The notes under the pieces were generated by a model that had not been told where the DNA came from, made no database searches, and saw only the letters and a list, made by a program, of their open reading frames with translations. The translations under genes were made by a program, and so were the position numbers. DNA of 64,000 bases from a virus. Lineage: Duplodnaviria > Heunggongvirae > Uroviricota > Caudoviricetes. Location of the stretch: the IMG/VR virus record IMGVR_UViG_3300028832_002797; one strand, 5' to 3'. Below are positions 923 to 55,467 of this stretch, piece after piece. Numbering within the stretch: the first letter of the stretch is position 1; each line of letters begins with the position of its first letter.

Positions 923-1750
923 TTATGCACCACACATTTTTACAAAGTCTTCTTCAGAAATAAGGGTCGTTCCCTGCTTACGGGCCTTTTGAGCCTTGCT
1001 CGAAGTGGAATTCGGATCGGCGAGCACGAGGAAGTTCGTAGTCTTCTTCATGGTTTCATCAACGACACCGCCATTGTTTTCGACCAATGCCCAGAGTTCC
1101 TTACGAGGACGGGAAGCCGCACCAGTGAAACAGAAAGACTGACCGTTGAGAACACCCGCGACAGGAGCCTTCGGAACGAGAATGGAGATATACTTCAAAG
1201 TTTCTCGCATGTCGGATTCGAGTGCCTTCAGACCAGCTTTGAGCTTATCGGACGTAATTTGACCCACGCCTTCGCAAACATAATCGTTACAGTTGATGAA
1301 GTCATCGAAAGTGGTCAATTTCTTCGCATCGATAATCCTCTGGACGATTCTTTCGCCAAGGCCTGAGATGTTATAGCCCGAGATAAATTGAGCCAATGTG
1401 GCTTGTTTATGGGCTTCTATTTGGGCCTTAATGATTTCAGCGGAACGCTTGCCATAACCTTCAAGATTTTCAATCTTCTTGTAGTCAATCTTGTAGAGAT
1501 CCGAGATAGACTTAAAAACGCCAGCGTCATAAAGAGATTCAATGGTGGTCAAGCCAAGTTCCATAATCTGAAGTTTTTCAGTCCATTTCGAAATACGACC
1601 GGAAAACTTGCTCTTGCACAGTTCGTTAGTGCAATAGAACTGTTTATGATTTTCAGAAACTGTCAAATCACCGCCGCAAATCGGACAAACAGTCGGCATG
1701 TTCCAGTTGTGAAGGCTTGCTAAAGTTTTAACGTCCATTGTAATCTCCAT
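923..1750 (-). CDS. ligA: NAD-dependent DNA ligase, C-terminal fragment (Zn-finger + HhH + BRCT domains only)
   Basis: CPICGG...C..C zinc-finger motif, helix-hairpin-helix region, and a BRCT-like GQSFCFTG...VLADPNSTSSKAQKARKQG segment. These align with the LigA C-terminal modules. The ORF-track start at 1780 is TTG and would translate the promoter box. I place the start at ATG 1748-1750 (MEITMDV...). Confidence 0.8.
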   Translation of the reverse strand: MEITMDVKTLASLHNWNMPTVCPICGGDLTVSENHKQFYCTNELCKSKFSGRISKWTEKLQIMELGLTTIESLYDAGVFKSISDLYKIDYKKIENLEGYGKRSAEIIKAQIEAHKQATLAQFISGYNISGLGERIVQRIIDAKKLTTFDDFINCNDYVCEGVGQITSDKLKAGLKALESDMRETLKYISILVPKAPVAGVLNGQSFCFTGAASRPRKELWALVENNGGVVDETMKKTTNFLVLADPNSTSSKAQKARKQGTTLISEEDFVKMCGA

Positions 1751-1760
1751 TGTATGACTA

Positions 1761-1772
1761 CAATATAGCAAA
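1761..1772 (-). promoter_or_regulatory. Conserved phage promoter-like box (minus-strand CTATATTG) about 10 nt upstream of the ligA-C ATG
   Basis: Plus strand reads caatatagcaaa. Same motif family as more than 25 other intergenic sites. Confidence 0.45.
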
Positions 1773-1798
1773 TTTGGCAAGCTTTGTCAATGGTAAAT

Positions 1799-7928: not shown

Positions 7929-7934
7929 AGTATC

Positions 7935-7948: not shown

Positions 7949-7979
7949 CCTACAAACGATTAAGTTTGTAGGTCTTTTT
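7949..7979. terminator. Bidirectional hairpin terminator (cctacaaac-gattaa-gtttgtagg) flanked by A6/T5 runs
   Basis: 9-bp perfect stem with T-runs on both strands. Lies between the 7997..8203 gene and polB. Confidence 0.55.
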
Positions 7980-7996
7980 GTTCCAAATTTCTTCAA

Positions 7997-8203: not shown

Positions 8204-8216
8204 AATTTGTTTTCCT

Positions 8217-9763: not shown

Positions 9764-10510
9764 TTAAACTAACTTCGTCTTTACCTTGTCAATTAATCCG
9801 ATTTTCTTTGCTTCATTTGCCGACATGAAGTTATCAAACGAAGTAAGTTCACGGAGTTCTTCAGTAGTCTTTCCAGTCTGCTTCTTGAACACGCGATTCA
9901 TGCTATCGGTCCAGTTCTGTAATTCCTTCTGGAGAATGCTAACGTCCTTGAGACGACCAGCGAAACCATCGGCGACAATACCAGCCTGATGAATCATGAT
10001 ACGAGAAGACGGGAAAGCATAACGATGGCCAGGAGTTCCATTAGCGAGAATAACAGAAGCCATACTCGAGCAAGAACCACATGCAATCGTATTGATAATA
10101 ATACCCTTACGCTTCAGTTCGTCCATGACATCGATGAGTGCGAAACCGGCGTCGCAATCACCACCAGGAGAAGAAAGGTAAATGGTAACAGGTTCCTTCA
10201 GGTCATCATCGTAGAATGAGAGACGCTGGATAGTGCGGATAGCGATACTCCAGTCAATAGCGCCCGTAATCCAAATACAACGCTTGACTTCGAAGTAATT
10301 CTGACGCATAATTTCGAAATAACCACCCATTTCGCCAAGAGGAATTCCCTGTTGCTCAGGTTCTTCCGGCTGGCCTTCAGGAGGAACAGCATTAGGATTT
10401 TCCGGACCTACTGGAGGCATTTGACCCGGATTCGGAGTAACCATCGGAGCAATTGGAGCTTCTACTGGCTTATTATCAGATTTCTTCTTTACGATGCGCT
10501 TTAAAGACAT
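9764..10510 (-). CDS. clpP: ClpP-family serine protease with Pro-rich N-terminal extension
   Basis: YLSSPGGDCDAGFALIDVM...GSCSSMASVIL...RIMIHQ matches the ClpP catalytic Ser (GxSxMAS) and His (IHQ) regions. Confidence 0.8.
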   Translation of the reverse strand: MSLKRIVKKKSDNKPVEAPIAPMVTPNPGQMPPVGPENPNAVPPEGQPEEPEQQGIPLGEMGGYFEIMRQNYFEVKRCIWITGAIDWSIAIRTIQRLSFYDDDLKEPVTIYLSSPGGDCDAGFALIDVMDELKRKGIIINTIACGSCSSMASVILANGTPGHRYAFPSSRIMIHQAGIVADGFAGRLKDVSILQKELQNWTDSMNRVFKKQTGKTTEELRELTSFDNFMSANEAKKIGLIDKVKTKLV

Positions 10511-15076: not shown

Positions 15077-15601
15077 TTATTTTAGCCTTTCGATTATCTT
15101 TTGGACAATTCCGTTATATCCGTCCTCAGTTCCATCAGCAACTTCATATTGTAAGTTATTTGAATCCAAAAAATCAAGCAATCGACCATCAATAGCCTTA
15201 GCTTCTTCTTCAGTTTGGTTTCGACCGTTAGGATTATATTTCTTGGCACGCTTTACAAAAATATTGAATGTATTTTTATATTTCTTCGCTTCATAAAGGC
15301 ACACATCCTGATACGGTTTTTCATCGGTATACATTGCACCCATAGCAATCGGACTATCGGTAACAATCACATCGACTTTTCCGAGAAGTCTGGCAACTTT
15401 AAGGCATTGCTTACCCGTAACATACAGCTGGCAGAACTTGAGCGGAAACTGATCATCCTGCCATACCCTATCCTTGGCATATTCTGAGACGTATTCGCAA
15501 TCAACTCCAGCCATTTTAAGTTTTGCAAAAATATAAGCGGCTCCGGTTGATTTTCCCGAGCCTGGACCTGCATAAAGATTAACTAATAATGTGTCTTTCA
15601 T
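15077..15601 (-). CDS. P-loop NTPase / nucleotide kinase-like protein (AAA_33-like)
   Basis: Walker A LYAGPGSGKSTGAAY near the N-terminus. Small size (about 174 aa). Start moved to ATG 15599-15601. Confidence 0.5.
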   Translation of the reverse strand: MKDTLLVNLYAGPGSGKSTGAAYIFAKLKMAGVDCEYVSEYAKDRVWQDDQFPLKFCQLYVTGKQCLKVARLLGKVDVIVTDSPIAMGAMYTDEKPYQDVCLYEAKKYKNTFNIFVKRAKKYNPNGRNQTEEEAKAIDGRLLDFLDSNNLQYEVADGTEDGYNGIVQKIIERLK

Positions 15602-15691
15602 AATTTTCACCTGTGATACAAATATAGTAAAGTTTTTATTACATTTCGTAACGTTTATAAAAATCTGTATTTACAAAAACGCTTCGGTTTG

Positions 15692-15705: not shown

Positions 15706-16893
15706 ATGAAAATTGATTTATCGACTATCAAAAATGACCTTCTCACTTCTGGTATGAAACTTGCTTCCGCTATCGAAAGCAAGGGTTATGAAGCATACCT
15801 GGTTGGCGGTTGCGTTCGTGATATGGTTCGTTGGTCTCTCGGCCAGAGCGGTTTTCCTGATATTCATGATATTGACATCAGTACGAACATGCCTATCAAA
15901 GAACTGCAGAAAACCTTCAAGACCGCATCCAACAACGGTGAGACTCATGGCACTATTCTGGTTTTCCAGGACGGTGAACCTTTCGAGGTGACTCAGTTCA
16001 GAACCGACGGTGCATATACCGATGGTCGTCACCCCGATTCAATCACTTTCGCCAAGACTTTCAAGGAAGACTGCTTACGTCGCGATTTTACCATCAACGC
16101 TATGGGACTTAGCGGCAAGGGTGAAGTGATTGACTATTACGGTGGTATCGCTGATGTCGAAAACAGTATTATTCGAGCTGTCGGCAAGGCAGAAGATCGT
16201 TTTGCTGAAGACTACCTTCGAATTTTCCGTGGTGTTCGCTTCATGGTCAACTTCGATTATTCTTTGGCTGATAGCACTTACGAAGCGATGAAGACTACTG
16301 CTTCTACTTATACCTATAAGCTGGATTCTCTGTCTTATCCTCGTATTCGTGGTGAAATTAGCAAGGTCAAGAACCCTTCTAAGAATCTTGCGAAGTTCTT
16401 CTTTACCTTGAACCACACTGGTGTTCTTAACTGGCTTACTACTTTCAGAAATGTCGATGTTCCTGCAATGATTAAGCGTTTGGAATCTGTAAAGCATCTC
16501 AACGAAGATAACATTTTCGCTGTAATCGCTTTCAGTGAAGAACCTGAAATGCTTGAACGCCTTTCTGCTACTCGCGAAGATTCTCGTCTTCTCAAGTGGT
16601 ATAATTACATGCTCAAGAAGCTGAAGGAAACAAACGAGAACATTAGCTGGGATAGTATTGTTAAGTTCGTTGAGGGTGATTACAAGACACTCCTCGAAAT
16701 GACCAAGATTATTCCTGCATGGTATCATCGAATTCCTATCGCTCTGAAGCTGAAAGACGATAAGCCTGATTTACATGCCATCGTCGAAAGAGTTCAGAAC
16801 GAATTAGGTATCAAGCCAAGTGCTAAGTTCGGTCTTGCGGTTGACGCACTTCTCGAACAAGAATACGAAGCGAAAGCAACGAAAATCCAATAA
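15706..16893 (+). CDS. cca: tRNA nucleotidyltransferase (CCA-adding enzyme), class II
   Basis: GGCVRD...DIDI head-domain signature and RRDFTINAM motif of class II CCA/poly(A) polymerases. Confidence 0.85.
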   Translation: MKIDLSTIKNDLLTSGMKLASAIESKGYEAYLVGGCVRDMVRWSLGQSGFPDIHDIDISTNMPIKELQKTFKTASNNGETHGTILVFQDGEPFEVTQFRTDGAYTDGRHPDSITFAKTFKEDCLRRDFTINAMGLSGKGEVIDYYGGIADVENSIIRAVGKAEDRFAEDYLRIFRGVRFMVNFDYSLADSTYEAMKTTASTYTYKLDSLSYPRIRGEISKVKNPSKNLAKFFFTLNHTGVLNWLTTFRNVDVPAMIKRLESVKHLNEDNIFAVIAFSEEPEMLERLSATREDSRLLKWYNYMLKKLKETNENISWDSIVKFVEGDYKTLLEMTKIIPAWYHRIPIALKLKDDKPDLHAIVERVQNELGIKPSAKFGLAVDALLEQEYEAKATKIQ

Positions 16894-16897
16894 AAAA

Positions 16898-16924
16898 CAA
16901 ACCCGGTTTTTAACCGGGTTTTCA
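16898..16924. terminator. Rho-independent terminator aacccggtt-ttt-aaccgggtt plus T-run immediately after the cca stop
   Basis: 9-bp perfect stem. Lies between convergent genes. Confidence 0.65.
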
Positions 16925-16926
16925 TT

Positions 16927-17172
16927 TTATGCGATTGTTTCCCAACTGATTGTAATCATCTTTGAATCTTCATCCATTCGCATGAACTTAAACTCAAATT
17001 CATTGAATTCGATGTCTTTTCGATTCAATGCTGGTAGTTTCACTTGGCTTTCGAGAATCGGCAAGCACTTTTCACGGAATCGAGTGATTTGGCGAGAAGC
17101 TCCTGGAGTTCCTTCAGCTTCGTCAACAATCGTACATTTCTTTGTTTTCTTATCAACTCTTACAATAACCAT
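16927..17172 (-). CDS. hypothetical protein (81 aa)
   Basis: ORF track. Confidence 0.35.
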   Translation of the reverse strand: MVIVRVDKKTKKCTIVDEAEGTPGASRQITRFREKCLPILESQVKLPALNRKDIEFNEFEFKFMRMDEDSKMITISWETIA

Positions 17173-17612
17173 CAGATTCTCCGTTTAATTTTGATTTCAT
17201 TTTCCTGGTCCACAAAATGTTCCTTCATGTATGCGACCTTATCAGCCGGTACATTGTGAACATTCTGGAATTCATTATCCATACGGTAAATCGTAACTTT
17301 AATGTCACGAGCTTCCGCTTCTCTCAAATACGGTTTCAAATCCTTACGGGTTACGAACGTATTTGCGACGATAACATACTGTGCACCTTCATCAAAAGCC
17401 CTAAATACTCTTTCAAAACAGTTTTTATGGGCATAATAAAGTTTACTAGTATGGAAAACGTATTCACCCTTATCATTATACCAATAATCATCAGCCTCTA
17501 CGTGCTCGACTTTGTAGCCTTGCTTTTCGAGGTCGATTTTTAATGTTTTAGCATAAGTAGACTTTCCGGAACCAGGTATTCCACGAACAACAATCAATGT
17601 CTGTGTATTCAT
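17172..17612 (-). CDS. Polynucleotide kinase-like P-loop kinase (T4 Pnk kinase-domain-like)
   Basis: VVRGIPGSGKSTYAKTL Walker A at residues 8-24. Size and layout resemble the T4 PseT kinase domain. Adjacent to the RNA ligase. Confidence 0.55.
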   Translation of the reverse strand: MNTQTLIVVRGIPGSGKSTYAKTLKIDLEKQGYKVEHVEADDYWYNDKGEYVFHTSKLYYAHKNCFERVFRAFDEGAQYVIVANTFVTRKDLKPYLREAEARDIKVTIYRMDNEFQNVHNVPADKVAYMKEHFVDQENEIKIKRRI

Positions 17613-17830
17613 TTGATTTCCCTTGAGGAAACCAAATAAAAATCTGGTTTCCTATTCTGTTAACCTATATGCCGCAGCAACCAACAGAACATTCAGTAAA
17701 TAGAATTTAAAGAATATTCCGAAGACTGACCTACAGCCTAATTCCTCTCGACTTGTTCCTATTGAAGATATGATTAGAAACACAAATTCCAATACGAACA
17801 ATAACGTTCCATATTCAAATATAGTAAAAA

Positions 17831-19063
17831 TCATTCTTCAATAGTCCTTTGCACGTTAGAAGGTTCCAATTTTTTGTGTACAGCACGCTTTACAGAAACA
17901 AAGCTCTTGTCATTGCGAGAAATACACTTGATAGCCTGCATGATAGCCCCTACATCGCTTTTATAGTGTGCTGTGGCATATTCATAGCGAGAACGCTGGT
18001 CTTCAACAGCCTTCATGGTTTCACGAGCTTCAGAGACGACTACTTCAGTTAATTCTGCTACCCTTTTACGTACGCTTTCGGCGTATTCACGTAATTCCGG
18101 GAATTCTTCAGGAATATACAGAACTTCGTCGTCAATCGGCTTGTAACCCTTTGTCTTGTCGACATTGGCATGGAAGAAATCCTTTTCACAGTCGTAAGCT
18201 ACCCAGATATTCCATTCACTAAGGCATTCGAGCATTTTCGCAAGCTGGCACCATTCATCAGACTTTACCTTAATCTTGAAACCGTGTTCCGGGAAAGTGA
18301 TAACGTAACCTTCCTGGTTTGACGGAAGCTTGGTTGCGATATTTCGAGCTTCATTGAAAGTATCGAATTCGTAAATCTCCGCCATCTTGATTCCCCAAGC
18401 ATTAGCATAGACACGAAGTCCGGTAATGTGTTCTTCTTCGCCAGTTTCATTATCGATAACGGCGAGCAGCACAAGGCCTTCGAAGTCATAACGGATCGGA
18501 TGGAAATCCTCGTTATAAACGATTTCGAACAGGTAGGTCTTCTTCGGGTTCAAGAGTTCCTTTTTGATATGCTGGTCAAACCAACGCTGTCCCCAGATTG
18601 CCTGGTCAGAATCGAAAGAACCGCCGGTTTTCAACTGCCAATGTTTCAGATACGGATTCCAGAATACGATACCCAAAGACCCGTCAACCTTTTCCATAGT
18701 ATGGAAACGAATAGACTTCAGAATCTTTCGGATGTCAATCTTCTTCTGGTACTTCATGACCTTCTTTGCGAGTTCCGTCAGTTCGCCAGTCTCGCTGTCA
18801 ATCAGTTCACCGTAGTTGAAGAACTTATCGAACGGACGAGCTACGATTTCGCCGGTTTCAGAATCGAAAACGATACCACGGGAGGTGAGAGTAATCTCAT
18901 CCCAATCCGAAGTATATACTGTTTCTCGAGTATACTTGAAACCAACGAGCTTACCGTACCAGTGAGCTGTGATTCGTCCTTTTTCTGCCGCCTTCAAATA
19001 CTTACGAAGCTTGTACTTCTTCTGTATTTTCCTTAGCAGGTTCTTCAACTTTTCCGTTATCAT
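17831..19063 (-). CDS. rnlA: ATP-dependent RNA ligase, T4 Rnl1 (RnlA) family
   Basis: Nucleotidyltransferase motif I TMEKVDGSLG. Segments RGIVFDSETGEIVARPFDKFFN, FEIVYNE...LLAVIDNETGEE and EGYVITFPEHGFKIKVKSDEW are collinear with T4 Rnl1. Confidence 0.85.
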   Translation of the reverse strand: MITEKLKNLLRKIQKKYKLRKYLKAAEKGRITAHWYGKLVGFKYTRETVYTSDWDEITLTSRGIVFDSETGEIVARPFDKFFNYGELIDSETGELTELAKKVMKYQKKIDIRKILKSIRFHTMEKVDGSLGIVFWNPYLKHWQLKTGGSFDSDQAIWGQRWFDQHIKKELLNPKKTYLFEIVYNEDFHPIRYDFEGLVLLAVIDNETGEEEHITGLRVYANAWGIKMAEIYEFDTFNEARNIATKLPSNQEGYVITFPEHGFKIKVKSDEWCQLAKMLECLSEWNIWVAYDCEKDFFHANVDKTKGYKPIDDEVLYIPEEFPELREYAESVRKRVAELTEVVVSEARETMKAVEDQRSRYEYATAHYKSDVGAIMQAIKCISRNDKSFVSVKRAVHKKLEPSNVQRTIEE

Positions 19064-19277
19064 CTTTTTCTACCTTTTTCTTTGCACCGACCTTATGGGT
19101 CTTGTCAAGTTCCACATGTTCGATTTTACAACCAGCTTCATATCTTTCCTTAATGAAGCTTTCAAGTTCACCACGAACTTCAGTTTCCGTTTCACCGTAA
19201 CGCTTGAAAATAAGCGGTCCGGGAAGTCCATCGATAAAAACAATACACTTATAACGTTCTTTCATTACTTTTCCCAC
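19002..19277 (-). CDS. hypothetical small protein (91 aa)
   Basis: ORF track. Overlaps the rnlA start by about 60 nt in another frame. Confidence 0.3.
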   Translation of the reverse strand: MGKVMKERYKCIVFIDGLPGPLIFKRYGETETEVRGELESFIKERYEAGCKIEHVELDKTHKVGAKKKVEKDDNGKVEEPAKENTEEVQAS

Positions 19278-19933
19278 ATGGCATCGATTTTGACTAGTTC
19301 ATCAATGCTTACGGGACGATACCATGCTTCCCAGCTAACATTGTTTTCAATCAACCGCATATCGTCCTGGTCAATAACACTGGTTTTATTGAATTCGTGT
19401 GTATGACCATGCACGACATAATCGATTTGACGACCTTCGTTGAGGTACTGGTTCAGAGCCGTAGGATCTCCAGAAGTACCATCATGTTCGTTAAGTGTTT
19501 TATCGTAGTTAAAATGCTGGAACAGGTAATTCTTACCGTTATATGTCAAGAAAATATTGTCCTTTACCATTGTGATGTTCGGGAACATAGTGTCCTTGAC
19601 TGGATAGAGCTTCTTGAACAACTGATAGTCATGATTTCCACGAATCATATACATGTGCTTGAAATTCAACTTATTCGTGTAATAGTCACCGAAAACTTCG
19701 AGCAACTTGCTACCAGGAGTACCAAGAGTAAAGTCACCGAGAAAGATAACGGTATCATTCGGTGAAACGGTCGCATTCCACTGCTTAACAATGTCATCGT
19801 TCATTTCGTCGACGGTCACATACTTACGGGTACGGTCGAAATGATCTTCATAACTGGTACAAAGCTTTCGATGGTTAACGTGCAAGTCGCTGACGACAAA
19901 AATCTTTTCTGTATTAGGTAATTGTAAATCCAT
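19265..19933 (-). CDS. Calcineurin-like metallophosphoesterase
   Basis: Motifs VSDLHVNH, GDFTLG, GNHD and HGHTHE (DxH...GDxxD...GNH[DE]...GHxH). Start moved to ATG 19931-19933, because the track start lies inside the terminator hairpin. Confidence 0.65.
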   Translation of the reverse strand: MDLQLPNTEKIFVVSDLHVNHRKLCTSYEDHFDRTRKYVTVDEMNDDIVKQWNATVSPNDTVIFLGDFTLGTPGSKLLEVFGDYYTNKLNFKHMYMIRGNHDYQLFKKLYPVKDTMFPNITMVKDNIFLTYNGKNYLFQHFNYDKTLNEHDGTSGDPTALNQYLNEGRQIDYVVHGHTHEFNKTSVIDQDDMRLIENNVSWEAWYRPVSIDELVKIDAMWEK

Positions 19934-19953
19934 ATTGCAAATATAATAAAAAT

Positions 19954-19980
19954 AAGGCATTTTGTAAATGCCTTATTTTT
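19954..19980 (-). terminator. Hairpin aaggcatt-ttgtaa-atgcctt plus T-run
   Basis: Follows the stop of the small membrane ORF 19973..20143. Confidence 0.45.
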
Positions 19981-20146: not shown

Positions 20147-21262
20147 TTATTTATTAAGGTAATCTTCAATAATCTGCTCGTGATGGAAACCCATCTTCGG
20201 GAGGTCATTAACATCGAACCATGCAGCATCCTTGGCGTCGTCACCGGCCTTTGCGAGCTTCTTTTCCTTGCCAGATACCTTCACAGACACTGCTGTATCG
20301 ATAATACGCAAGCGTGGGTCAAACATGTGGCTGTAGGTCTTAATCTGCTCAAACTTTTCAACCGGAAGGTCCAGGGACGTTTCTTCGCGGAATTCACGTT
20401 GTGCTGCATGTTCCAAAGAAGCATCTGCTTTTTCTGGAAGTCCGGTTTCCTTATTAGTATAGTCGGTCGGATTAAAAAAACCACCGGGTGTGCAGAAGTA
20501 GTTCATGTAAGGCGGTTTCTTACGACGAATCAACAGAACTTGGTCACTGGAAATACCGACAATATCGACAGTATTTGCAAACTTGCCCCAGCCTTGCTTC
20601 TTGTAGTTTTCAAGCCACTGCTTTTCGAGTTCTTCGTAATTGGACGGGTTCTGGTCATAAAGGCTGTTAGTCTTGATAGGCATATCGCGGTCATCAGTCA
20701 GTTCGCCTTCTTTACGGATATATTCGAAAACCGGCTTGCTGATAATATGCTTAACGTCCTTATAGTGACATTCGGGATTTCTGTAGAAAATATCACGAGC
20801 TTCGCTGCTGGAAATATCGCCCTTGAGATTTAAATTAACAATAGTACAATTATCACGTTTTTCAATATCAGTAATGATATGGAAACAACGAGGACAGACT
20901 ATAAACTTATAATTCTTCAAGAGACGGTCGCTAAACTTCCATTTTCCTGTAAGCAGAGAATTCCATTCGTCTTCACCGACAACGATAGTAATATCCTTAT
21001 CTTCGGTTCCGAACTTGGAAGTAATGAATTCATAAGTTCTGTTATTCTGGATAAGAATAGTCGGATTCAGCTTACGTGCCTTCATCGCGACTTCAACCAT
21101 AGCGACACGTTCATTCACTGGCGTCTTGTAATTCTTTTCATCTGTATTGGAAACGATGACATAAAGTTCATCGCCTTTACGAACCTTCTTGCTCACAGCC
21201 TTGATAATAGCTTCATGAGCGTGTGTAATCGGATCAAATGCACCACCAATCAAATACTTCAT
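20147..21262 (-). CDS. natV: Bifunctional NMN adenylyltransferase / Nudix hydrolase (NatV/NadM-Nudix-like NAD salvage enzyme)
   Basis: N-terminal GGAFDPITHAHEA (HxGH nucleotidyltransferase motif). C-terminal Nudix box GGFFNPT...EHAAQREFREETSL. Start moved to ATG 21260-21262, preceded by GGGAGA. Confidence 0.75.
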   Translation of the reverse strand: MKYLIGGAFDPITHAHEAIIKAVSKKVRKGDELYVIVSNTDEKNYKTPVNERVAMVEVAMKARKLNPTILIQNNRTYEFITSKFGTEDKDITIVVGEDEWNSLLTGKWKFSDRLLKNYKFIVCPRCFHIITDIEKRDNCTIVNLNLKGDISSSEARDIFYRNPECHYKDVKHIISKPVFEYIRKEGELTDDRDMPIKTNSLYDQNPSNYEELEKQWLENYKKQGWGKFANTVDIVGISSDQVLLIRRKKPPYMNYFCTPGGFFNPTDYTNKETGLPEKADASLEHAAQREFREETSLDLPVEKFEQIKTYSHMFDPRLRIIDTAVSVKVSGKEKKLAKAGDDAKDAAWFDVNDLPKMGFHHEQIIEDYLNK

Positions 21263-21263
21263 A

Positions 21264-21632
21264 TTATCTCCCGTAATAATTTCCACAATGAGTTTCGACA
21301 TCACCCATGACATCGCCCTTAACTGTAATGTTTCCGGCTTTTGTTTCTACATCGCCCATAACATCACCGCCAATTTCAACATTGCCAGCTGAACATTCAA
21401 CATCACCGTCGACATCACCCTTTACAGTAATATTATGTCCTTTACAGGTACTGATAATGTCGCCATTAACGGTAATGTTGATAATCTTATCAGTTACTTC
21501 AATGGTCTTGGTACCGATAGTGATATTGTTACCATTGATACTAACATCACCAACAGGGTTATGAATTTTATGGCCATTAATTTCGATGCTCTTTACACCG
21601 CCGAGACCTTTAAGAATATTCTCTTCAGACAT
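21264..21632 (-). CDS. bactofilin-like beta-helical repeat protein (GDV.G.V repeats)
   Basis: Tandem GxVxGDV repeats (NITVKGDVDGDVECSAGNVEIGGDVMGDVETKAGNITVKGDVMGDVE). SD aaggaa upstream. Confidence 0.4.
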   Translation of the reverse strand: MSEENILKGLGGVKSIEINGHKIHNPVGDVSINGNNITIGTKTIEVTDKIINITVNGDIISTCKGHNITVKGDVDGDVECSAGNVEIGGDVMGDVETKAGNITVKGDVMGDVETHCGNYYGR

Positions 21633-23391: not shown

Positions 23392-25308
23392 TTACTTATC
23401 TGCTTCGGAGAACAGATTAATAAGCGTGTCCTTGCTCAACTGAGTCAAGTCAAGAGCAACTTCAGTCTCAGTATCGGAATCTTCGACAAATGTAAAGCCT
23501 GCTCTTTCGAGAATCGGCTTCAGGTCGACGAACGAACGACACTTGTTCTTGAGGTTCTCAATATACACGTCTGCATATTCTTGACTCGGGACACGTCCTC
23601 CTCCCTGGGTAAGGTCCATGAGATAGACTTTGTTGTCCACGATCAATGCACACTGCTTGTCGCGTTCGTTATCCACCGGAACGATGAATTCAGCGACAAC
23701 ATTGTTCGGGTCAACCTTTGCACTTACCCTGTATGCGTCCTTCTTCTTTTTCTCTTGACGAGCGACGAAGAACTTAAACTGGGACTTTGCGGAACCATTG
23801 TACTGACTTACGGAAATCTTTCCATCCGGGCACTTGCAGTCGATGTAGAACAATTCTGTTGCTTCAGGGTCTGCATTGGTCATGTCGCCAGAGAAAATAA
23901 TCTTATTTTCACGGTCAGTGAATGATGCGTTCCAGCCGTAGCTACTACCGTTAATATCGGCCATGTGAAGGTCGAAATCACGAGTACCCCATTCATTACG
24001 CCAATAGATACCGACGATATTGTGATCGTCAGCCATATTGACAGAGGTACCGAACGGATAGTTACCGATGAAGTTTTTTTCTGACGTTGGGACGGTCAGA
24101 TTGATATTCAACGGATAACGAACAGTACATGCCTTATCCTTGATGGAATTGACAATGGAATCTTCGAGCATTCCATAAAGTACCATCAGGTAGGAATTCA
24201 TGGACTGGCTTGTAGCCGGAGTGTCCTTGCGGATCCACATCTTGCCGTTACGAATCACGTACATCTTGCCACGAGCATTCTGGAGCTTGGCAAGAATACC
24301 TTGCATGAGAGTAATCTTCTTGAAGTTGGTGATTTCACCCTTTTCAAGACGAGCACGTACATCGTCCAGCTTCTTCTGTTCAGAAAGTACGGTTTCCCAG
24401 AAACCGGCAGTGAACGGCTTATGGTCAGTAACAGCCAAACGACGGATATGGTTAATAACCGATGAATTCGACTTCTTGCCAACAACAGCGGCCTTAAGCT
24501 TTGCTGCAGCCTTTCTGAAAGCTTCATTCTTGAAAACAGACGACTTACCAGCGTCCTTCTGGTTCTTGAATGCCAAGAACAGAGGCTTGAAGCGGTAGAA
24601 AATTGAAGCGAGTGCATGACACTGCTCTTCCGACAGCTTAGTAAAGTCGACGCTTTCAGCCTTTTCCTTAATCATGCGGATAGTCTTCTTGTCCTTGATG
24701 AGCATAGCTGCACCAGTAGCCTTGAAGACGAAGTATCGAAGCATGTTAAACGGATCCTTACCGTAGAAACCGGTTGCATCCATCAGGGCGATAGTTGCTT
24801 CCTTATTCTTGATGGTATCAATATCGAGACCATAGGTCTTGAAACGCTTCTGTTCGGTAATGAAGCCAACAAGTGCGTTAATGGTTTCGGTTTCAAGAGC
24901 GATACCAGCCTGGAGCATCTTAACACAACGGTTATAGATTTCCTCATCAGTTGCCGGCATAATCACCTTGAAAGAGTCGTACGGGATTTCAACGTCCGGA
25001 GCATTGTTCGGAACGTATGTTTCACCCGTATAATCAGTTCCGTAGGTCGAGGCGTAATGAAGAAGTTGATCTACCAACAGTTCAAAACGCGTCTTAGACG
25101 TGATGTCGGACCATTTGGCGTAGAAGGTCTTATTGTAATTTGTCTTCGCTTCAGCCTTGACCCAATCGAGTGCGAGCTTGGAGCAACAATCCGGGTGGAT
25201 AATCCAACCGTACTTTGCAGATTCAGCGTTAACATCTTCAAAAGAACGCTTTGAGTTACCTTCTGCCTTAGGCATGACATTGAACATTGTAATCAACTTA
25301 AGATTCAT
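23392..25308 (-). CDS. large hypothetical protein (638 aa)
   Basis: Long uninterrupted ORF with verified ATG. No motif recognised by eye. Confidence 0.5.
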   Translation of the reverse strand: MNLKLITMFNVMPKAEGNSKRSFEDVNAESAKYGWIIHPDCCSKLALDWVKAEAKTNYNKTFYAKWSDITSKTRFELLVDQLLHYASTYGTDYTGETYVPNNAPDVEIPYDSFKVIMPATDEEIYNRCVKMLQAGIALETETINALVGFITEQKRFKTYGLDIDTIKNKEATIALMDATGFYGKDPFNMLRYFVFKATGAAMLIKDKKTIRMIKEKAESVDFTKLSEEQCHALASIFYRFKPLFLAFKNQKDAGKSSVFKNEAFRKAAAKLKAAVVGKKSNSSVINHIRRLAVTDHKPFTAGFWETVLSEQKKLDDVRARLEKGEITNFKKITLMQGILAKLQNARGKMYVIRNGKMWIRKDTPATSQSMNSYLMVLYGMLEDSIVNSIKDKACTVRYPLNINLTVPTSEKNFIGNYPFGTSVNMADDHNIVGIYWRNEWGTRDFDLHMADINGSSYGWNASFTDRENKIIFSGDMTNADPEATELFYIDCKCPDGKISVSQYNGSAKSQFKFFVARQEKKKKDAYRVSAKVDPNNVVAEFIVPVDNERDKQCALIVDNKVYLMDLTQGGGRVPSQEYADVYIENLKNKCRSFVDLKPILERAGFTFVEDSDTETEVALDLTQLSKDTLINLFSEADK

Positions 25309-26425: not shown

Positions 26426-27298
26426 TTAAACGTTTTTAATAAAATCTAGTATATTTATACGAACAGTTTCATAATATTTATCCCAGATTCCCATTATTAA
26501 ATTAATATTTTCGTCACTTACATTATCCATTTTAAGTTTTTTCTTATATGTTGGACATGCATTAAATACGTTTTCAGCCCCAAGTATTGCTTCACATTCA
26601 TATTGTGGGCTTTTGCTAGAACGTGCAATCCAATCGCTGAGCATATATTCTGCCCATCCAAGTAAAGTTTGATTACCATGCTCAGTATTTGGAGTTTCCA
26701 TACCTGTACTAAAATTAAGAATTTTAATATCTTTATGTCCCTGTTTAAATTGACCTGCCAAAAGAATATCTGAACATTCATTAGCCCAGCAACCGCCATC
26801 CATATAAGATAAACCATCTTTTTCAATAACATCAAAATATGTTGGTGCTGCACAAGATGTTAAAACTGCAAATGCTTTATCAACATCTTTATCGCCTAAA
26901 TCCCATACTTTTTCAACAGATTTACCATTCATGCAAGTAGTTGGTATAAAAATAGGTTTTTTCCAATCTGAACATTTACCTTTCAAATTACTCTGTAATA
27001 ATTTTTTAAGATTAGAATTATCATATGTTGGGCAAGACGGTTTTAAACGCTTATACCATGAATACTTTGTAAAAATTTTCTTTAAGTTATTCTTATAAAG
27101 TTCAAATATATCATGTGCCGAATATCCTTCAGCTAAACAAGCAGCAATAATAGAACCTGTACTTGTTCCTGCAAAAGCAGAAGTTAAATCACAAAGTTTT
27201 TTACCAAGATCCTGTTCAAGACGACACATAAAAGCTAATGGGCCAATTCCAAGAGCACCACCGCCCGCAATACTAATACATAATTGTTTCTTTGCCAT
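26426..27298 (-). CDS. Patatin-like phospholipase
   Basis: Oxyanion GGGALG, nucleophile elbow GTSTGS (GxSxG) and catalytic MDGG (DGG) motifs in the canonical order. Confidence 0.75.
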   Translation of the reverse strand: MAKKQLCISIAGGGALGIGPLAFMCRLEQDLGKKLCDLTSAFAGTSTGSIIAACLAEGYSAHDIFELYKNNLKKIFTKYSWYKRLKPSCPTYDNSNLKKLLQSNLKGKCSDWKKPIFIPTTCMNGKSVEKVWDLGDKDVDKAFAVLTSCAAPTYFDVIEKDGLSYMDGGCWANECSDILLAGQFKQGHKDIKILNFSTGMETPNTEHGNQTLLGWAEYMLSDWIARSSKSPQYECEAILGAENVFNACPTYKKKLKMDNVSDENINLIMGIWDKYYETVRINILDFIKNV

Positions 27299-27820: not shown

Positions 27821-28266
27821 TACTTCTTACCTAGAAGCTTATTAAAGGCATTTACGAGCTTACTGATTTCGTCTTCACCGTGTGTAGGTTCATAATCAAT
27901 ACTTGTATCATAAACAACACGACGTTGAACTGGTTCTTTCTTCATTTTTTCCTTATGTTCATTCATAAGTTTTTCAGCAAGTTCATATGACGGAATATAA
28001 AATCCAACATCCCATGAAGCATCTTTTGAACAAATATGAGGTTTAGATTCTTCTTTCCAAAGACAGCTATCACGGTATCTTAAGTATCGTTCCATATTAT
28101 AGGTCAAACGAAACCAAGTCTTCGAACCACTATTTATCTTACGGTATTCAACAACAAACCATGACGGATCTCGGTTTGCAATACTTGGAGAAACGTCAAA
28201 ATCGAACGTCGGATATTCAAATGTACCAAGTTCTATAATACGATATTCATAAAGTGATTTTTCCAT
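27820..28266 (-). CDS. hypothetical protein (148 aa)
   Basis: ORF track. Confidence 0.4.
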   Translation of the reverse strand: MEKSLYEYRIIELGTFEYPTFDFDVSPSIANRDPSWFVVEYRKINSGSKTWFRLTYNMERYLRYRDSCLWKEESKPHICSKDASWDVGFYIPSYELAEKLMNEHKEKMKKEPVQRRVVYDTSIDYEPTHGEDEISKLVNAFNKLLGKK

Positions 28267-29378
28267 TAGAATACATATCCTTCACGAGACTTACCAGTAG
28301 TAACATTACGAAGAATGGTTGGAATGATTTCACCAGCCTTCGTAATAATGACTTCATGACCAATTTCAATGCCCATATCTTCGAGCATATCGATATTGCA
28401 CATATTTGCACGCTGAACAGTAGTTCCACAGAGTTCCACAGGTTCAACGACAGCGACCGGAGTCAAATTACCATTCTTAATAGACCATTCAATATTGATG
28501 AGCTTGGTCTGAGCAAGAGAATACTTCGGCTTCAAAGCGATAGAGAATTCCGGGAGGTAATTCGTTTCAAGATCTTCATAATCGATAACAGAAGTCTTCC
28601 AAACAAGACCGTCAATCTGATAATCACGTTCTTCATGCCAAACCTGGTCCATAATGGCAACAGCCTTATCGCCAGTCATAGAGTCGAGGTCATAAATCTT
28701 GTATTCAACAACATCGAAACCCTGCTTGGTCATCCAGTCGAGCATATCGACCTGAGTATGAAATTTAGTGTTCTTCGGGCGAGCTTCATAAACCTTGATA
28801 TTGAGCTTGTCACAATCAGAACCATCGAGATGCTTCATAATACCAGAAGCGGCATTACGACAGTTCTTGTACTTCGGGAAGAACTGTTCCTTAACGGACT
28901 TGTAGAGCAAAATTTCACCACGGATAGTTCCGGTAAATTCCTTATCCTTAAGCTTCTTGACAGCACCTTTCATTTTGAGGATATTATCGGTAATGTCATC
29001 ACCGTATTCACCGTCACCGCGAGTAATGCCCTGAACGAGCTTACCGTCAACGTATTCAAGAGCAATAGAACAACCGTCAAGCTTCAAAGGAGCGACGACA
29101 AATTCATGACCGGCCATACGACACTTATTGAACCAGACGTTCATTTCTGGAGCAGTATTGGCCTTATTCTGAGAGCCCATGATAATGTTGTGCTTTACCT
29201 TTTCAAATCCTTCGGTATGATCCTTACCGACTTCCTTCAAAACGTCAGAATCAGGATAATTGGTTTTGAGTTCGTCCCAGAGAGCATCGAATTCGATGTC
29301 GCTCATGATCGGGGTGTCGGAGTTGTAGTAGGCGTCTTGTGCCTGGCGGATTTTAGCTTCAAGTTCGTTCTTATTCAT
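28266..29378 (-). CDS. ligA: NAD-dependent DNA ligase, N-terminal fragment (domain Ia + adenylation NTase + OB fold)
   Basis: Collinear with LigA residues about 1-400. KxDG motif PLKLDGCSIALEY, ITRGDGEYGDDIT, CRNAASG, DGLVWK and VIITKAGEIIP. Ends at the OB-fold boundary. ATG placed at 29376-29378, 6 nt after a promoter box. Confidence 0.85.
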   Translation of the reverse strand: MNKNELEAKIRQAQDAYYNSDTPIMSDIEFDALWDELKTNYPDSDVLKEVGKDHTEGFEKVKHNIIMGSQNKANTAPEMNVWFNKCRMAGHEFVVAPLKLDGCSIALEYVDGKLVQGITRGDGEYGDDITDNILKMKGAVKKLKDKEFTGTIRGEILLYKSVKEQFFPKYKNCRNAASGIMKHLDGSDCDKLNIKVYEARPKNTKFHTQVDMLDWMTKQGFDVVEYKIYDLDSMTGDKAVAIMDQVWHEERDYQIDGLVWKTSVIDYEDLETNYLPEFSIALKPKYSLAQTKLINIEWSIKNGNLTPVAVVEPVELCGTTVQRANMCNIDMLEDMGIEIGHEVIITKAGEIIPTILRNVTTGKSREGYVF

Positions 29379-29384
29379 GTTATA

Positions 29385-29397
29385 CAATATAGTAAAA
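29385..29397 (-). promoter_or_regulatory. Promoter-like box (minus-strand TTTTACTATATTG) 6 nt upstream of the ligA-N ATG
   Basis: Plus strand reads caatatagtaaaa. Followed upstream by hairpin gggccttgtcaaccc. Confidence 0.45.
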
Positions 29398-29654
29398 AAT
29401 ATGGGCCTTGTCAACCCATTTTTTCTAAAGCATTGAGAATACAAAAATCATGCTTAAATGCAAGATTTTCTTTTTCAACGTCCATATCGTATTTCTTGTC
29501 ACCCATTTGGATAATCTTATAAGAAGAATTTGCAATATGAGTATCGCTTTCTCGCGTCCACGAATACGTATAGCCACCAATCAGTTCTTGTTTAAGGGTT
29601 CTCCGTATAAGTCCATGAATATAACAATCACAGTCGTCTTTAACACCATCTTTG

Positions 29655-31151: not shown

Positions 31152-32801
31152 TTAGCGGCGGCGACGACGCGTTGCTTCGGAAATGATGGACGGATCGTTC
31201 ATCAAATCTGCGAGGTTGCGACCGATAGAAGAAGTATTAAATGCGGCAGATTCCTTAGTCGGATCTTCCTTCGGCTGTGGAGTTTCCGGACGAGCTTCGT
31301 CCTTGGCTTCGTTTACGACTTCAGCTTCAGCCTTTTCAACCTTCGGAGCGCCGGAAACACCAGCGAGTCGGGCACCGAACATAGAACCGAGAACGGTCTT
31401 AAGGTCCATACCGAGAGAATCGGTCAAACCGCTAGAAATCTGAGTAAGCGTCTTAGTAATATCGCCGGTAAGCTTTGCGGTACCACTTTCACCGTACATG
31501 TTGATGTTACCAATCTTTTCCATCGGCTTAGCAACTGCGGCAGCGACAGCCGGGAGCTGTTCGAAATACTTTTCGATGGTCTTGAGCTGCATTTCCTGAC
31601 GAGCTGCGTCACCATACTTCTTCATGGCTTCAGCCTTCTGGTCAAGAGCTGCTGCTTCTGCAAGACCCTTAGCCTTTACAGCATCAGCCTCAGCTTCACC
31701 TTTAGCCTTAGTAGCTGCAGCTTCAGCGAAAGCCTTTTCCTTATCAGCTTCAGCCTTGGCGATAATTGCCTTAGCTTGCTGCTGCTGGGTAAAGAGTGCT
31801 GCTTCAGCTTCCTTCTGCTGCTTATAAAGTTCAGCATCAGAACGCTGCATCTGAGCCTGCTTATCGGCTTCAGCCTTCTTCTGAATTTCAGCTTCAAGTT
31901 CCTTCTGACGGACAGCTACCATACGTTCGCGAATTTCAATCTGCTTTTCCTGCTTTGCAACTTCTGCAGCTGCTGCGGTAATATTGATGGTCTTCTGCTG
32001 TTCCTGCTTCTGAATTTCATAAGCGGCATCAGCTTCGGCCTTCTTAGTATCAGAAATTCGCTTAAGGTCAGCCTTCTTAACTTCGAGGTCATTCTGCTTC
32101 TGAGCGATTTCAAGGTTTGCTGCAACCTGAGCGTCGTTTGCGGTCTTTGCTGCTTCAGCTTGAGCAATCTTCACGTCACGTTCTGCATTTGCTCGAGAAA
32201 TTGATGCAGCCTTCTGAATAGCCACTGCCTTATCGACACCGAGGTTTTCAATAACCTTACCGTCATCGGAGAAGTTCTGAATATTGAAGGTCTTAACGAT
32301 AATACCGAGTTTTTCAAGGTCTGGAATAGCATTTTCGAGAACCTTTTCAGAAACCTGCTTTCGGTCCGTAACCATGTCGACCAGATTCATCTGACCAACA
32401 ATCTCACGCATATTACCCTCAAGCACGTCAACAATCATCGCCTTAATCTGTTCAATCGGTTTATTGAGGAAGTTCTGTGCTGCTTTCTTAATTGCTTCAG
32501 GTTCATCAGAAATCTTCGCATTAACAACAGCGTCAACTGTTACATTAATGTAGTCCTTGGTCGGAACTGCCTGCTTAGTCTTGACGTCAATCGGAATCAA
32601 CTTCAAGCTAAGAACGTCAGCACGTTCAAGGAACGGGATCTTGAAACCGGCATGTCCGATAATTGTTCGAAGCTGTCGGAAACCCGAAATAATAATTACT
32701 TCATCCGGCGCCGCCTTAATGTAAGACGTAATGAAGAGGATAACGAGGAAAAGTACGAGCAGGCCGATACCCGCACCGATGAGGATATTTGAACTAATCA
32801 T
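31152..32801 (-). CDS. Flotillin-like SPFH/Band-7 domain protein with long Ala/Lys/Glu coiled coil
   Basis: N-terminal TM helix, then an SPFH core (PDEVIIISGFRQL...). About 250 aa of AEA/KQ-rich coiled coil. Size 549 aa, like bacterial FloT/YqiK. Confidence 0.65.
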   Translation of the reverse strand: MISSNILIGAGIGLLVLFLVILFITSYIKAAPDEVIIISGFRQLRTIIGHAGFKIPFLERADVLSLKLIPIDVKTKQAVPTKDYINVTVDAVVNAKISDEPEAIKKAAQNFLNKPIEQIKAMIVDVLEGNMREIVGQMNLVDMVTDRKQVSEKVLENAIPDLEKLGIIVKTFNIQNFSDDGKVIENLGVDKAVAIQKAASISRANAERDVKIAQAEAAKTANDAQVAANLEIAQKQNDLEVKKADLKRISDTKKAEADAAYEIQKQEQQKTINITAAAAEVAKQEKQIEIRERMVAVRQKELEAEIQKKAEADKQAQMQRSDAELYKQQKEAEAALFTQQQQAKAIIAKAEADKEKAFAEAAATKAKGEAEADAVKAKGLAEAAALDQKAEAMKKYGDAARQEMQLKTIEKYFEQLPAVAAAVAKPMEKIGNINMYGESGTAKLTGDITKTLTQISSGLTDSLGMDLKTVLGSMFGARLAGVSGAPKVEKAEAEVVNEAKDEARPETPQPKEDPTKESAAFNTSSIGRNLADLMNDPSIISEATRRRRR

Positions 32802-32838
32802 TTGTGTTCCTTTTGTTGAGTTTTTATTTGTTAAGAGC

Positions 32839-33579
32839 TTAATCGTTCAGCCATGAGTTCTCCATTGCAATGAAGACACAGCAGATTACGATAATAACCG
32901 TTGAGAAAATAAGCCAGAAGTAAAGTACAGTGTGTTTCCAACTGAATGACTCTACCGCCTGGTCAATGCGTACACCATCTCGATATTCAGCGTCATTCAT
33001 CCGATGATTATCAATATTGGCATAAACAGTTCCAGTATAGCTTAAAGACCTACAATAATAAACATATCTCTTATTATGAGCGAAATTAATCGTCTTTACA
33101 TAATGACCTTCCGGCAATTTCGGGAATTGACTGTAATAAAAGTCCTTCTTGATGAAATTGACCTTATCAACAGCCCAATCCTTGGCACCGTGATAGTCCC
33201 AGGTCCAATATACCTTGGTATGACAGCTACGTGTCTTACCAGAACCAGTACAGACGAGCTTTGTGTGCATCGTATAGACCTCAAGCACTCGATGTATCGA
33301 CATATACTGGCCAGGCAAACCGTTGTCCGTAACGCTTCCTATTGCGTTAACAGTGCCATATGCCAAAGTATGCCCAGCATTGGTTTTGAAAGCATATTCA
33401 AACTGTGTGGAATCGTTATCGATCTTTACAGCCTGATTATACTTAGCGTTATGTTCATCCTGCCAAATACCCATCCGGTTCCCGACATAGAAACCTACGC
33501 CGAGGGAGATAAGGGCGAAAATGAGGGCGATAATAACTTCGCGCTGAGTTACTTCAATATTGGTATTACCAAGATACAT
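32839..33579 (-). CDS. membrane protein with TM helices at both termini (246 aa)
   Basis: Hydrophobic segments at N- and C-termini. Confidence 0.45.
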   Translation of the reverse strand: MYLGNTNIEVTQREVIIALIFALISLGVGFYVGNRMGIWQDEHNAKYNQAVKIDNDSTQFEYAFKTNAGHTLAYGTVNAIGSVTDNGLPGQYMSIHRVLEVYTMHTKLVCTGSGKTRSCHTKVYWTWDYHGAKDWAVDKVNFIKKDFYYSQFPKLPEGHYVKTINFAHNKRYVYYCRSLSYTGTVYANIDNHRMNDAEYRDGVRIDQAVESFSWKHTVLYFWLIFSTVIIVICCVFIAMENSWLND

Positions 33580-33583
33580 TTAT

Positions 33584-55465: not shown

Positions 55466-55467
55466 AA

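Follow-up and report, generated by a model that had tools for sequence, protein, structure and literature searches.

Several routes by which phages rebuild nicotinamide adenine dinucleotide (NAD+) have been described, and three of them, NARP1 to NARP3, have been shown to overcome NAD+-depleting defences (bioRxiv 10.1101/2024.02.11.579819; PMC13464706). The closest described proteins to the one studied here are NatV of phage KVP40, the Nmnat of NARP2 and the NadM-Nudix proteins of Synechocystis (slr0787; structure 2qjo) and Francisella (2qjt), all of which comprise an N-terminal pyridine-mononucleotide adenylyltransferase and a C-terminal Nudix domain of the ADP-ribose (ADPR) type. In the survey of Iyer et al. 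(2022), the phage nicotinamide mononucleotide (NMN) adenylyltransferases listed are NadM and NadR only, NadD is unmentioned, and every phage with NadM also has NadV (PMC9503650). Li et al. (2024) assembled 668 jumbo phages from animal guts, of which 174 "NAD-jumbo phages" carry complete salvage or Preiss-Handler pathways; a pncB-nadD-nadE cluster is found in Kuafu_71, and the hosts of the Kuafu clade are predicted to be Bacteroidota (PMC11662467). The phage Preiss-Handler pathway therefore is already known from metagenomics, and we found no experimental test of it in the literature. Here, we describe a gene on the minus strand (positions 20147 to 21262) of a 64,000-nucleotide stretch, referred to as the window, of the IMG/VR virus record IMGVR_UViG_3300028832_002797. 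The window is a fragment of an uncultured jumbo phage. The gene product shares the domain order of NatV, and its adenylyltransferase domain is assigned to another class, NadD.

The minus-strand open reading frame (ORF) spans 20147..21313 and comprises 388 amino acids (aa) when counted from its first ATG. The ATG at 21262 (MKYLIGG..., 371 aa) is a better start. This Met opens all 26 of the 26 aligned homologues, whose N termini follow the pattern M-x-Y-(L/I/V/F)-(I/F)-G, and a Shine-Dalgarno-like site (GGGAGA) lies 9 nucleotides (nt) upstream. Pfam analysis of the protein revealed a CTP_transf_like domain (residues 4-156; E 1.4e-11; 45 bits against a cutoff of 21) and a NUDIX domain (residues 229-367; E 8.9e-13; 49 bits against a cutoff of 21.1). 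The AlphaFold2 model had a predicted local distance difference test (pLDDT) score of 89 and a predicted template modelling (pTM) score of 0.85. Conservation of motifs was assessed across the query and 26 homologues (27 sequences, 46-87% identity). In the N-terminal half, G6, D10, P11, H16, G96, D98, E99, W108, S151, S152 and R156 are invariant; in the Nudix half, the invariant residues include G260, G261, R289, E290, E293 and E294. A preliminary description of this DNA had reported an HxGH-type motif fused to a Nudix box. Both Pfam domains score well above their gathering thresholds and both motifs were located, the first in GGAFDPITHAHEA (residues 6-18) and the second as REFREETSL starting at residue 289, so the fusion is real. 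The gene and its parts are as follows.

20147..21262, minus strand: complete gene (371 aa plus stop) for the fusion of a NadD-class adenylyltransferase and an ADPR-pyrophosphatase-type Nudix domain, delimited by the ORF, Pfam, homologue N termini, the Shine-Dalgarno-like site and the AlphaFold2 model
20693..21262, minus strand: N-terminal Rossmann nucleotidyltransferase of the NadD/NMNAT class, residues 1-190, assigned by TIGR00482, PDB profile matches and Foldseek
21215..21226, minus strand: T-H-A-H, the (H/T)xxH ATP-binding motif within GGAFDPITHAH; H16 is invariant and T13 nearly so; aligns with HTAH of 2h29 and TYAH of 5llt
20939..20977, minus strand: GEDEW...GKW, residues 96-108, the region of the NadD "IGxD...W" pyridine-nucleotide site, aligned with "viGtDqynqLekW" of 2h29
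20795..20815, minus strand: ISSSEAR, residues 150-156, a C-terminal ATP-phosphate-binding motif of the ISSTxxR type, aligned with "DISSTMIR" of 2h29
20579..20692, minus strand: linker and helix, residues 191-228, before the Nudix fold; aligns in part with the pre-Nudix region of NadM-Nudix
20162..20578, minus strand: Nudix domain, residues 229-367, assigned to the ADPR-pyrophosphatase/NrtR clade by Pfam NUDIX, the NadM-Nudix models and PDB profile matches to 2fml, 2qjo, 2qjt and 3gz8
20420..20473, minus strand: family-specific loop insertion in the Nudix box, within NPTDYTNKETGLPEKADA, residues 264-281; 2qjo and 2fml have a 14-residue gap opposite it, and D280 is invariant
20381..20398, minus strand: REFREE, the catalytic core of the Nudix box (REUxEE), in which R289, E290, E293 and E294 are invariant

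The best NCBIfam match of the N-terminal domain was the NadD family (TIGR00482), with 73.4 bits and residues 4-185 aligned to profile positions 1-191 of 194. Two models of the NadM/NadR class gave 14 bits (TIGR01527) and 16 bits (NF002243), both confined to residues ~2-66, and the bifunctional NadM-Nudix models (PRK05379 series) reached at best ~48 bits, against a cutoff of 397, over residues 205-365 only. When the 27-sequence family profile was compared with the PDB, it matched NadD of S. aureus (2h29) over residues 6-188 and the NMN adenylyltransferase (NMNAT) of P. falciparum (5llt) over residues 8-208. The same profile also matched 3dv2, 1kam and 1kqn (B. anthracis, B. subtilis and human NMNAT1) at full length. 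Foldseek superposed the model of the domain on the NadD structures 2h29, 3e27, 5deo and 1kaq with target-normalised template modelling (TM) scores of 0.70-0.75 and a root mean square deviation (rmsd) of 3.0-3.6 Å over ~190 columns. Taken together with the motifs, this assigns the N-terminal domain to the NadD class and not to the NadM/NadR class.

Further inspection of the motifs showed that the "HxGH" of this protein is a T-H-A-H variant, comparable to TYAH in the Plasmodium NMNAT and in part to HTAH in S. aureus NadD. The role of the Trp in the NadD pyridine-nucleotide site is known from established NadD/NMNAT structures. A motif of the ISSSEAR type is present in most representatives of the clusters formed at 50% identity. 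The domain thus resembles bacterial NadD and eukaryotic NMNAT (2h29, 1kam, 3dv2, 5llt and 1kqn) in its full-length profile match, its fold, its size of ~190 aa and its (H/T)xxH, GxD...W and ISSTxxR motifs. It differs from them in having Thr for the first His of HxGH (as in Plasmodium), in being fused to a Nudix domain, and in belonging to a family that is essentially confined to phage contigs. Phosphopantetheine adenylyltransferase (PPAT/CoaD), whose TxGH motif the TxxH resembles, was considered and rejected: its model matched only residues 4-72 (27 bits against a cutoff of 103) and the PPAT matches in the PDB cover only residues ~1-65, whereas NadD matches end to end. The choice of an NMNAT over a non-NMNAT cytidylyltransferase family, made in the preliminary description, therefore stands.

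The Nudix half is homologous to that of NadM-Nudix and NatV. It matched 2qjo with an E value of 3.5e-9, and by blastp it is 32% identical (E ~1e-19) to the Nudix halves of the NatV-type proteins of phages RSP15 and B23. Homology extends into part of the preceding linker: phmmer aligned residues 183-369 of the fusion with residues 151-331 of 2qjo. The AlphaFold2 model has a linker helix at residues 209-222, and the length of the linker loop differs among homologues. Matches to NudC were weaker than those to the ADPR clade, with an rmsd of >9 Å. By these comparisons, the domain is assigned to the ADPR-pyrophosphatase/NrtR clade, as are those of NadM-Nudix and NatV. The RE..EE residues are retained in nearly all of the divergent full-length two-domain representatives (50%-identity clusters), and this persistence, with the invariance of R289, E290, E293 and E294, argues for a catalytic Nudix domain. 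Relative to 2qjo and 2fml, an insertion of ~14 residues sits between GGFF and the catalytic helix, where the confidence of the model is 81-84; this extra loop is one of the features that separates the fusion from NadM-Nudix and NatV.

Ralstonia phage RSP15 ORF021 and Synechococcus phage B23 gp46, both annotated as NMNAT/ADPR pyrophosphatase, served as positive controls for the NatV type. Both scored 313-351 bits over their full length on the NadM-Nudix models, and a gene for nicotinamide phosphoribosyltransferase (Nampt, NadV) adjoins, or sits within 1 kb of, each of them. The N-terminal domain of the fusion matched the B23 protein by blastp only in the ~45-residue HxGH region (E 6e-4) and had no significant match in the RSP15 protein. 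Searched as a whole chain with Foldseek, the fusion found 2qjt, 2r5w and 2qjo as top matches (E ~1e-15), but the superposition had an rmsd of ~16 Å, so that the domain arrangements do not superpose. The proposal in the preliminary description that this architecture matches NatV and NadM-Nudix was thus correct for the Nudix half and not for the N-terminal half, which scores 73 bits for NadD against 14-16 bits for NadM. Both types occur in large phages. Since the N-terminal domains belong to different classes of the HIGH nucleotidyltransferase superfamily, the architecture is best described as analogous to NatV, with a catalytic half of another class.

In order to determine how widely the fusion is distributed, a collection of 5.8 billion proteins was searched, and 609 homologues were found. 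All but one of the best 120 of these are full-length fusions, on contigs of up to 464 kb; the exception is a 293-aa protein with the Nudix domain only. An exhaustive search of the 50%-identity representatives gave 59 proteins with E <1e-30, and ~50 two-domain representatives of 330-470 aa carry GG(A/K/S)F(D/N)PxTxxH, (V/I)SS(T/S)xxR and RExxEE. Two scans of 185,579 species genomes gave a single full-length match, on a 2.8-kb contig binned to a Traorella metagenome-assembled genome (MAG), and otherwise partial NadD-like matches; on this result, a cellular origin or host copy was rejected. One MAG match beside many phage contigs indicates a large, unnamed family that is essentially confined to phages. 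No full-length viral model in BFVD superposed well on the fusion. Among GenBank phages, megablast found no match (no near-identical phage) and tblastn found six weak records only. The IMG/VR contigs that carry relatives of the fusion with 58-83% identity measure 411-424 kb. We also noted that JGI metagenome 3300031993, which yielded the 6.4-kb contig of the target gene, contains short viral contigs (L037, IMGVR_UViG_3300031993_003056, and L081, IMGVR_UViG_3300031993_004610) on which PncA-like and NadE genes from this group of phages are found. The PncA copy of this sample is 85% identical to that of another relative, which suggests that several related NAD-salvage jumbo phages probably coexist there.

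The relatives (contigs designated by L numbers) carry genes of the deamidated route close to the fusion gene. In L027, L028 and L031, an Isochorismatase/PncA-like gene and then an NAD_synthase gene directly follow it. In L009, the PncB start lies 19 nt past the fusion gene, and in L029 a PncA-like gene and a PncB gene (NAPRTase_N and NAPRTase) lie 7-8 kb downstream. The PncB proteins of the relatives score 400-449 bits on NCBIfam (cutoff 379) and 332-380 bits on TIGR01514 (cutoff 269.55), and their NadE proteins score 152-160 bits (cutoff 63.65). In a six-sequence alignment, the PncA-like proteins retain the Asp/Lys/Cys positions and the DxH...H motif. At least one partner is present on 8 of the 9 IMG/VR contigs with the fusion gene, and all three (PncA, PncB and NadE) are present on 6 of the 9. 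In this respect the relatives resemble the NAD-jumbo phages, which likewise are gut or rumen metagenomic jumbo phages with a NadD-type enzyme, PncB and NadE; a Nudix fusion on nadD occurs nowhere in the main text of that paper (0 occurrences; PMC11662467). In L027 (12510-13598) and L031 (12480-13559), the NadD-Nudix, PncA and NadE genes are followed by a gene for a fusion of a Nuc_deoxyri_tr2 (nucleoside 2-deoxyribosyltransferase-like) domain and a metallophosphoesterase. Its product may be a further enzyme of the cluster that processes nucleotides or ADPR; the window yielded no counterpart.

Nampt is the partner of NatV, and the preliminary description had pointed to it as the partner expected here while noting that the window has none. 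The 60 ORFs of the 64-kb window were searched with Pfam, and no Nampt, phosphoribosyl pyrophosphate (PRPP) synthetase or PnuC was found; two phage Nampts used in tblastn also were unmatched. None of these genes was found beside the homologues in the fetched neighbourhoods, and among the best 80 of 315 Nampt matches in IMG/VR, none lies on the nine fusion contigs. The absence from the window is therefore upheld, and the expected partner is not: the partners found in relatives are PncA, PncB and NadE.

The closest relative is IMGVR_UViG_3300023371_000061 (411 kb), whose fusion protein is 83% identical and whose neighbourhood is collinear with the window from 9.7 to 30.5 kb. The genes for the fusion (~72.1 kb), PncA (~98.2 kb), PncB (~99.2 kb) and NadE (~116.5 kb) share one strand of this contig. 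The three leftmost genes of the window (120-422, 419-865 and 923-1780) match L048 at 1224-1520, 569-1006 and 2-499, respectively, with 70-96% identity, and beyond the shared genes L048 carries PncA (5998-6597) and PncB (6975-8204). The collinearity of the left edge of the window with the closest relative ends ~4.4 kb before the PncA gene of that relative. If the collinearity continues, pncA and pncB would be expected ~4.4-6.6 kb, and nadE ~23 kb, beyond window position 1. Exact-match look-ups of the two leftmost window proteins gave no match that extends the window.

On this evidence, the fusion probably is a bifunctional enzyme of phage NAD+ salvage that combines the nicotinate mononucleotide (NaMN) adenylyltransferase step of the Preiss-Handler route with recycling of ADP-ribose. 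In the proposed pathway, PncA would convert nicotinamide, released by NADases or by normal turnover, to nicotinate, and PncB would convert nicotinate to NaMN using PRPP and ATP. The NadD-type domain would then, most likely, catalyze NaMN + ATP -> nicotinate adenine dinucleotide (NaAD) + pyrophosphate, with activity on NMN possible, and NadE would convert NaAD to NAD+. Linkage in relatives to PncB, which makes NaMN, and to NadE, which uses NaAD, lends contextual support to a preference for NaMN. The Nudix domain most likely would hydrolyze ADP-ribose, its probable substrate and the other product of NADases, to AMP and ribose-5-phosphate, which could be returned to PRPP via host Prs; the same ADPR-recycling logic has been proposed for NadM-Nudix. 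Such a pathway would keep NAD+ available for the LigA-type ligase of the phage, and by extrapolation from NARP1-3 it could plausibly blunt NAD+-depleting defences. The suggestion of the preliminary description that the phage manages NAD+ is thus retained as to the process, in which NAD+ synthesis is joined to Nudix in a phage that has an NAD-dependent ligase, and both the family (NatV) and the partner (NadV) are replaced. Its claim that the phage encodes such a ligase was confirmed by Pfam.

28266..29444, minus strand: N-terminal half (Ia, adenylation and OB domains; 392 aa) of an NAD-dependent DNA ligase, an NAD+ consumer; Pfam DNA_ligase_aden 118 bits, DNA_ligase_OB 75 bits, Nlig-Ia
923..1780, minus strand: LigA C-terminal modules (weak Zn finger, HhH, BRCT) in a separate 285-aa gene, by Pfam; 96% identical to L048 2-499 and an anchor of the synteny

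The ligase appears to be split between these two genes, which lie ~26.5 kb apart. A similar BRCT/HhH protein is encoded in L029 (12036-12851), 1 kb downstream of the fusion gene.

Several observations weigh against this interpretation of the fusion. The TIGR00482 score of 73.4 bits is below the NCBI trusted cutoff of 112.45, which marks the N-terminal domain as a divergent member of the NadD family, and sequence alone does not tell a preference for NaMN from one for NMN. PncA, PncB and NadE are absent from the 60 ORFs of the window, both by Pfam and by tblastn with the proteins of relatives, and their presence in this phage is predicted from synteny with a relative. Scores of the PncA-like proteins on the nicotinamidase model are low (33-34 bits, where the cutoff is 174), though the matches span the full length. 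The Nudix box departs from the consensus GX5EX7REUXEEXGU in its loop insertion and in the replacement of the last Gly by Ser, and in a gapless reading no Glu occupies the Gx5E position; the invariant acidic residue nearby is Asp280. Finally, two of the closest Nudix structures are those of non-catalytic or uncharacterised NrtR-like proteins.

The last two points would suit a Nudix domain that acts as a non-catalytic ADP-ribose sensor, as in NrtR, and allosterically switches on NAD+ synthesis when NADases release ADPR. The NrtR-type proteins 2fml and 3gz8 and AraR (5bs6) are among the best structural and sequence relatives of this domain, and the NtrR repressor model also matches the fusion. 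However, none of R289, E290, E293 and E294 varies among the 27 sequences, whose identity falls as low as 46%, nearly all of the 50%-cluster representatives keep RE..EE, and the homologous NadM-Nudix domains are active ADPR pyrophosphatases according to the titles of 2qjo and 2qjt. We consider a sensor role to be unlikely.

Equally improbable, in our view, is that the fusion is an orthologue of NatV/NadM-Nudix whose substrate is NMN supplied by a phage Nampt (NadV) from another part of the genome, as in the NARP2 pathway. The domain order and the homologous Nudix half would be expected of such an orthologue, as would the Foldseek ranking of 2qjt, 2r5w and 2qjo, and PHROG 395 ("cytidyltransferase") matches the fusion over its full length with 44 bits. 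About 85% of the presumed ~400-kb genome lies outside the window, which leaves room for a Nampt gene. Eukaryotic NMNATs of the NadD class use NMN well. Nevertheless, the NadM/NadR models cover only the first ~65 residues, the NadM-Nudix score of ~48 bits compares with 313-351 bits in the Nampt-adjacent phage proteins of the NatV type, blastp of the N-terminal domain gives at most a 45-residue match, the whole-chain superposition has an rmsd of ~16 Å, no Nampt was found in the window or in the fetched neighbourhoods, and the partners found in the fetched neighbourhoods are those of the deamidated route. The other described pathways, NARP1 (Adps and Namat; bioRxiv 10.1101/2024.02.11.579819) and NARP3 (PnuC and a NadR-like enzyme; PMC13464706), also rebuild NAD+ in phages and differ from the one proposed here in enzymes and precursors (ADP-ribose pyrophosphate [ADPR-PP] and nicotinamide riboside, respectively). 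PnuC, ribosylnicotinamide kinase (RNK), Adps and Namat were not found here, and none of the 60 window ORFs matched NMN_transporter or NadR. The AAA_28 ORF at 15077-15610 was considered as a stand-alone ribosylnicotinamide kinase for the nicotinamide riboside route and rejected as unsupported; it has no NCBIfam match, and its PDB matches are limited to weak ones of the RecA P-loop type.

A third alternative is suggested by the genes next to the fusion. A tRNA/RNA-repair island (15706-19960) lies directly downstream of it and contains the following features.

19265..19960, minus strand: calcineurin-like metallophosphoesterase, a candidate for RNA-end healing, directly downstream of the fusion; Pfam Metallophos 55.5 bits; adjoins the fusion in L004-L007 too
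17831..19063, minus strand: RNA ligase of the T4 Rnl1 type; Pfam RNA_lig_T4_1 68.6 bits, TIGR02308 50 bits
17172..17612, minus strand: small P-loop kinase (AAA_33 by Pfam), a polynucleotide kinase (PNK) candidate, with weak matches to PNK-3'Pase and other kinases
15706..16893, plus strand: CCA-adding enzyme or tRNA nucleotidyltransferase of the poly(A)-polymerase family; 54% identity over 221 aa to an L030 protein with Pfam PolyA_pol and PolyA_pol_RNAbd

Adjacency of this kind recurs in L004-L007, L009, L027 and L029-L031. The gene directly preceding the fusion encodes a kinase in L004-L007, Rnl1 in L009, an Rnl2-like ligase in L027 and L031, and the CCA-adding enzyme in L030. An RNA ligase gene is found near the fusion in L002, L009, L010, L027, L030 and L031, and the AAA_33 kinase is conserved beside it in L004-L007 and L029. 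Phage neighbourhoods described by Iyer et al. (2022) likewise join a T4-like ligase, a kinase, a calcineurin-like phosphoesterase, Nudix and NAD-using enzymes (PMC9503650). This recurrent adjacency raises the minor alternative that the fusion serves RNA repair, with the Nudix domain removing NAD/ADPR-type caps or clearing ADP-ribose cyclic phosphate (ADPR>P)-type by-products of NAD-dependent RNA end healing, and the nucleotidyltransferase acting on RNA ends or regenerating NAD+. We regard this as the least likely of the three: a scan of 60 ORFs yielded no KptA/Tpt1, sirtuin, 2H or macro domain, the NadD mononucleotide-site motifs are kept across the whole N-terminal domain, the Nudix domain is of the ADPR clade and not NudC-like, in several relatives the fusion is more tightly linked to PncA, PncB and NadE, whose genes adjoin or overlap, and on a simpler view both modules may just share an accessory counter-defence region.

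A broader reading, which we offer tentatively and consider possible rather than probable, is that the fusion is an independent NadD-Nudix chimera, convergent with NadM-Nudix/NatV, and the hub of a four-enzyme Preiss-Handler reconstitution of NAD+ (PncA, PncB, NadD-Nudix and NadE). Such a pathway would rebuild NAD+ from nicotinamide and ADP-ribose, the two products of defence NADases, would protect gut jumbo phages from depletion by systems of the Thoeris, SIR2 or TIR type, and would be a fourth pathway after NARP1-3, perhaps coregulated with the tRNA-repair island as a single counter-defence region.

With few exceptions, the genes of the window run on the minus strand. Among them are genes for a T4-type UvsX, a family-B DNA polymerase, RNase H/FEN, dCMP deaminase, DHFR and ClpP, and for SPFH/flotillin, LemA, patatin, a major facilitator superfamily (MFS) transporter and the NAD-dependent DNA ligase. 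No tRNA genes were found in the window. Directly upstream of the fusion gene (21264-21632, minus strand) is a gene for a 122-aa protein with G-D-V/I-rich repeats and a below-threshold match to bactofilin (21 bits). Its stop codon abuts the start codon of the fusion, and the two genes may be translationally coupled. A 638-aa protein (23392-25308, minus strand) has no Pfam match, and is 74-86% identical in all closer relatives; its gene invariably lies upstream of the fusion, at a distance of a few kb (L003-L008).

Several genes for membrane and proteostasis proteins rarely seen in phages (SPFH/flotillin of 549 aa, LemA, a patatin-like phospholipase, ClpP and an M16 peptidase) are located at 31152-34135, 26426-27298, 9764-10510 and 37736-38833, and those for M16, flotillin and patatin are found again close to the fusion in the relatives L025, L027 and L030. 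The MFS transporter (47433-48605, minus strand) is closest to L-lactate and oxalate/formate transporters (SfMCT 200 bits, below the cutoff of 320) and is an unusual auxiliary gene; beside it, an ORF at 46117-47382 (plus strand) has a weak match to DUF1007. The GC content of the window falls to 0.27-0.31 at 50000-56000, compared with about 0.39 elsewhere. This stretch contains fragments that resemble DNA methyltransferases (N6_Mtase, 50491-50964, and Eco57I-like, 51836-52930) and a ResIII/DEAD helicase gene (52998-54605); acquisition of an island of the restriction-modification or anti-restriction kind may explain it. A second dip (0.31), at 26-28 kb, surrounds the patatin gene.

What is new here is a NadD domain fused to an ADPR-type Nudix domain, distinct from NatV, together with the corrected partner genes; no new principle is involved, and the pathway itself is known (PMC11662467). 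NAD+-rebuilding pathways such as NARP1-3 are of current interest, as they defeat many NAD+-depleting defences at once. The phage routes that have been tested experimentally all use amidated NMN or nicotinamide riboside, or ADPR-PP, and the present family appears to represent a large group of gut and rumen jumbo phages on the deamidated Preiss-Handler route. The family may escape homology searches that start from KVP40 NatV, the approach of the NARP2 survey, and surveys restricted to NadM and NadR, so that the frequency of phage NAD+ salvage could be underestimated. The design that couples an adenylyltransferase to an ADPR-Nudix domain arose with a second catalytic domain, of the NadD class, and its recurrence suggests selection for coupling NAD+ synthesis to the recycling of ADP-ribose.

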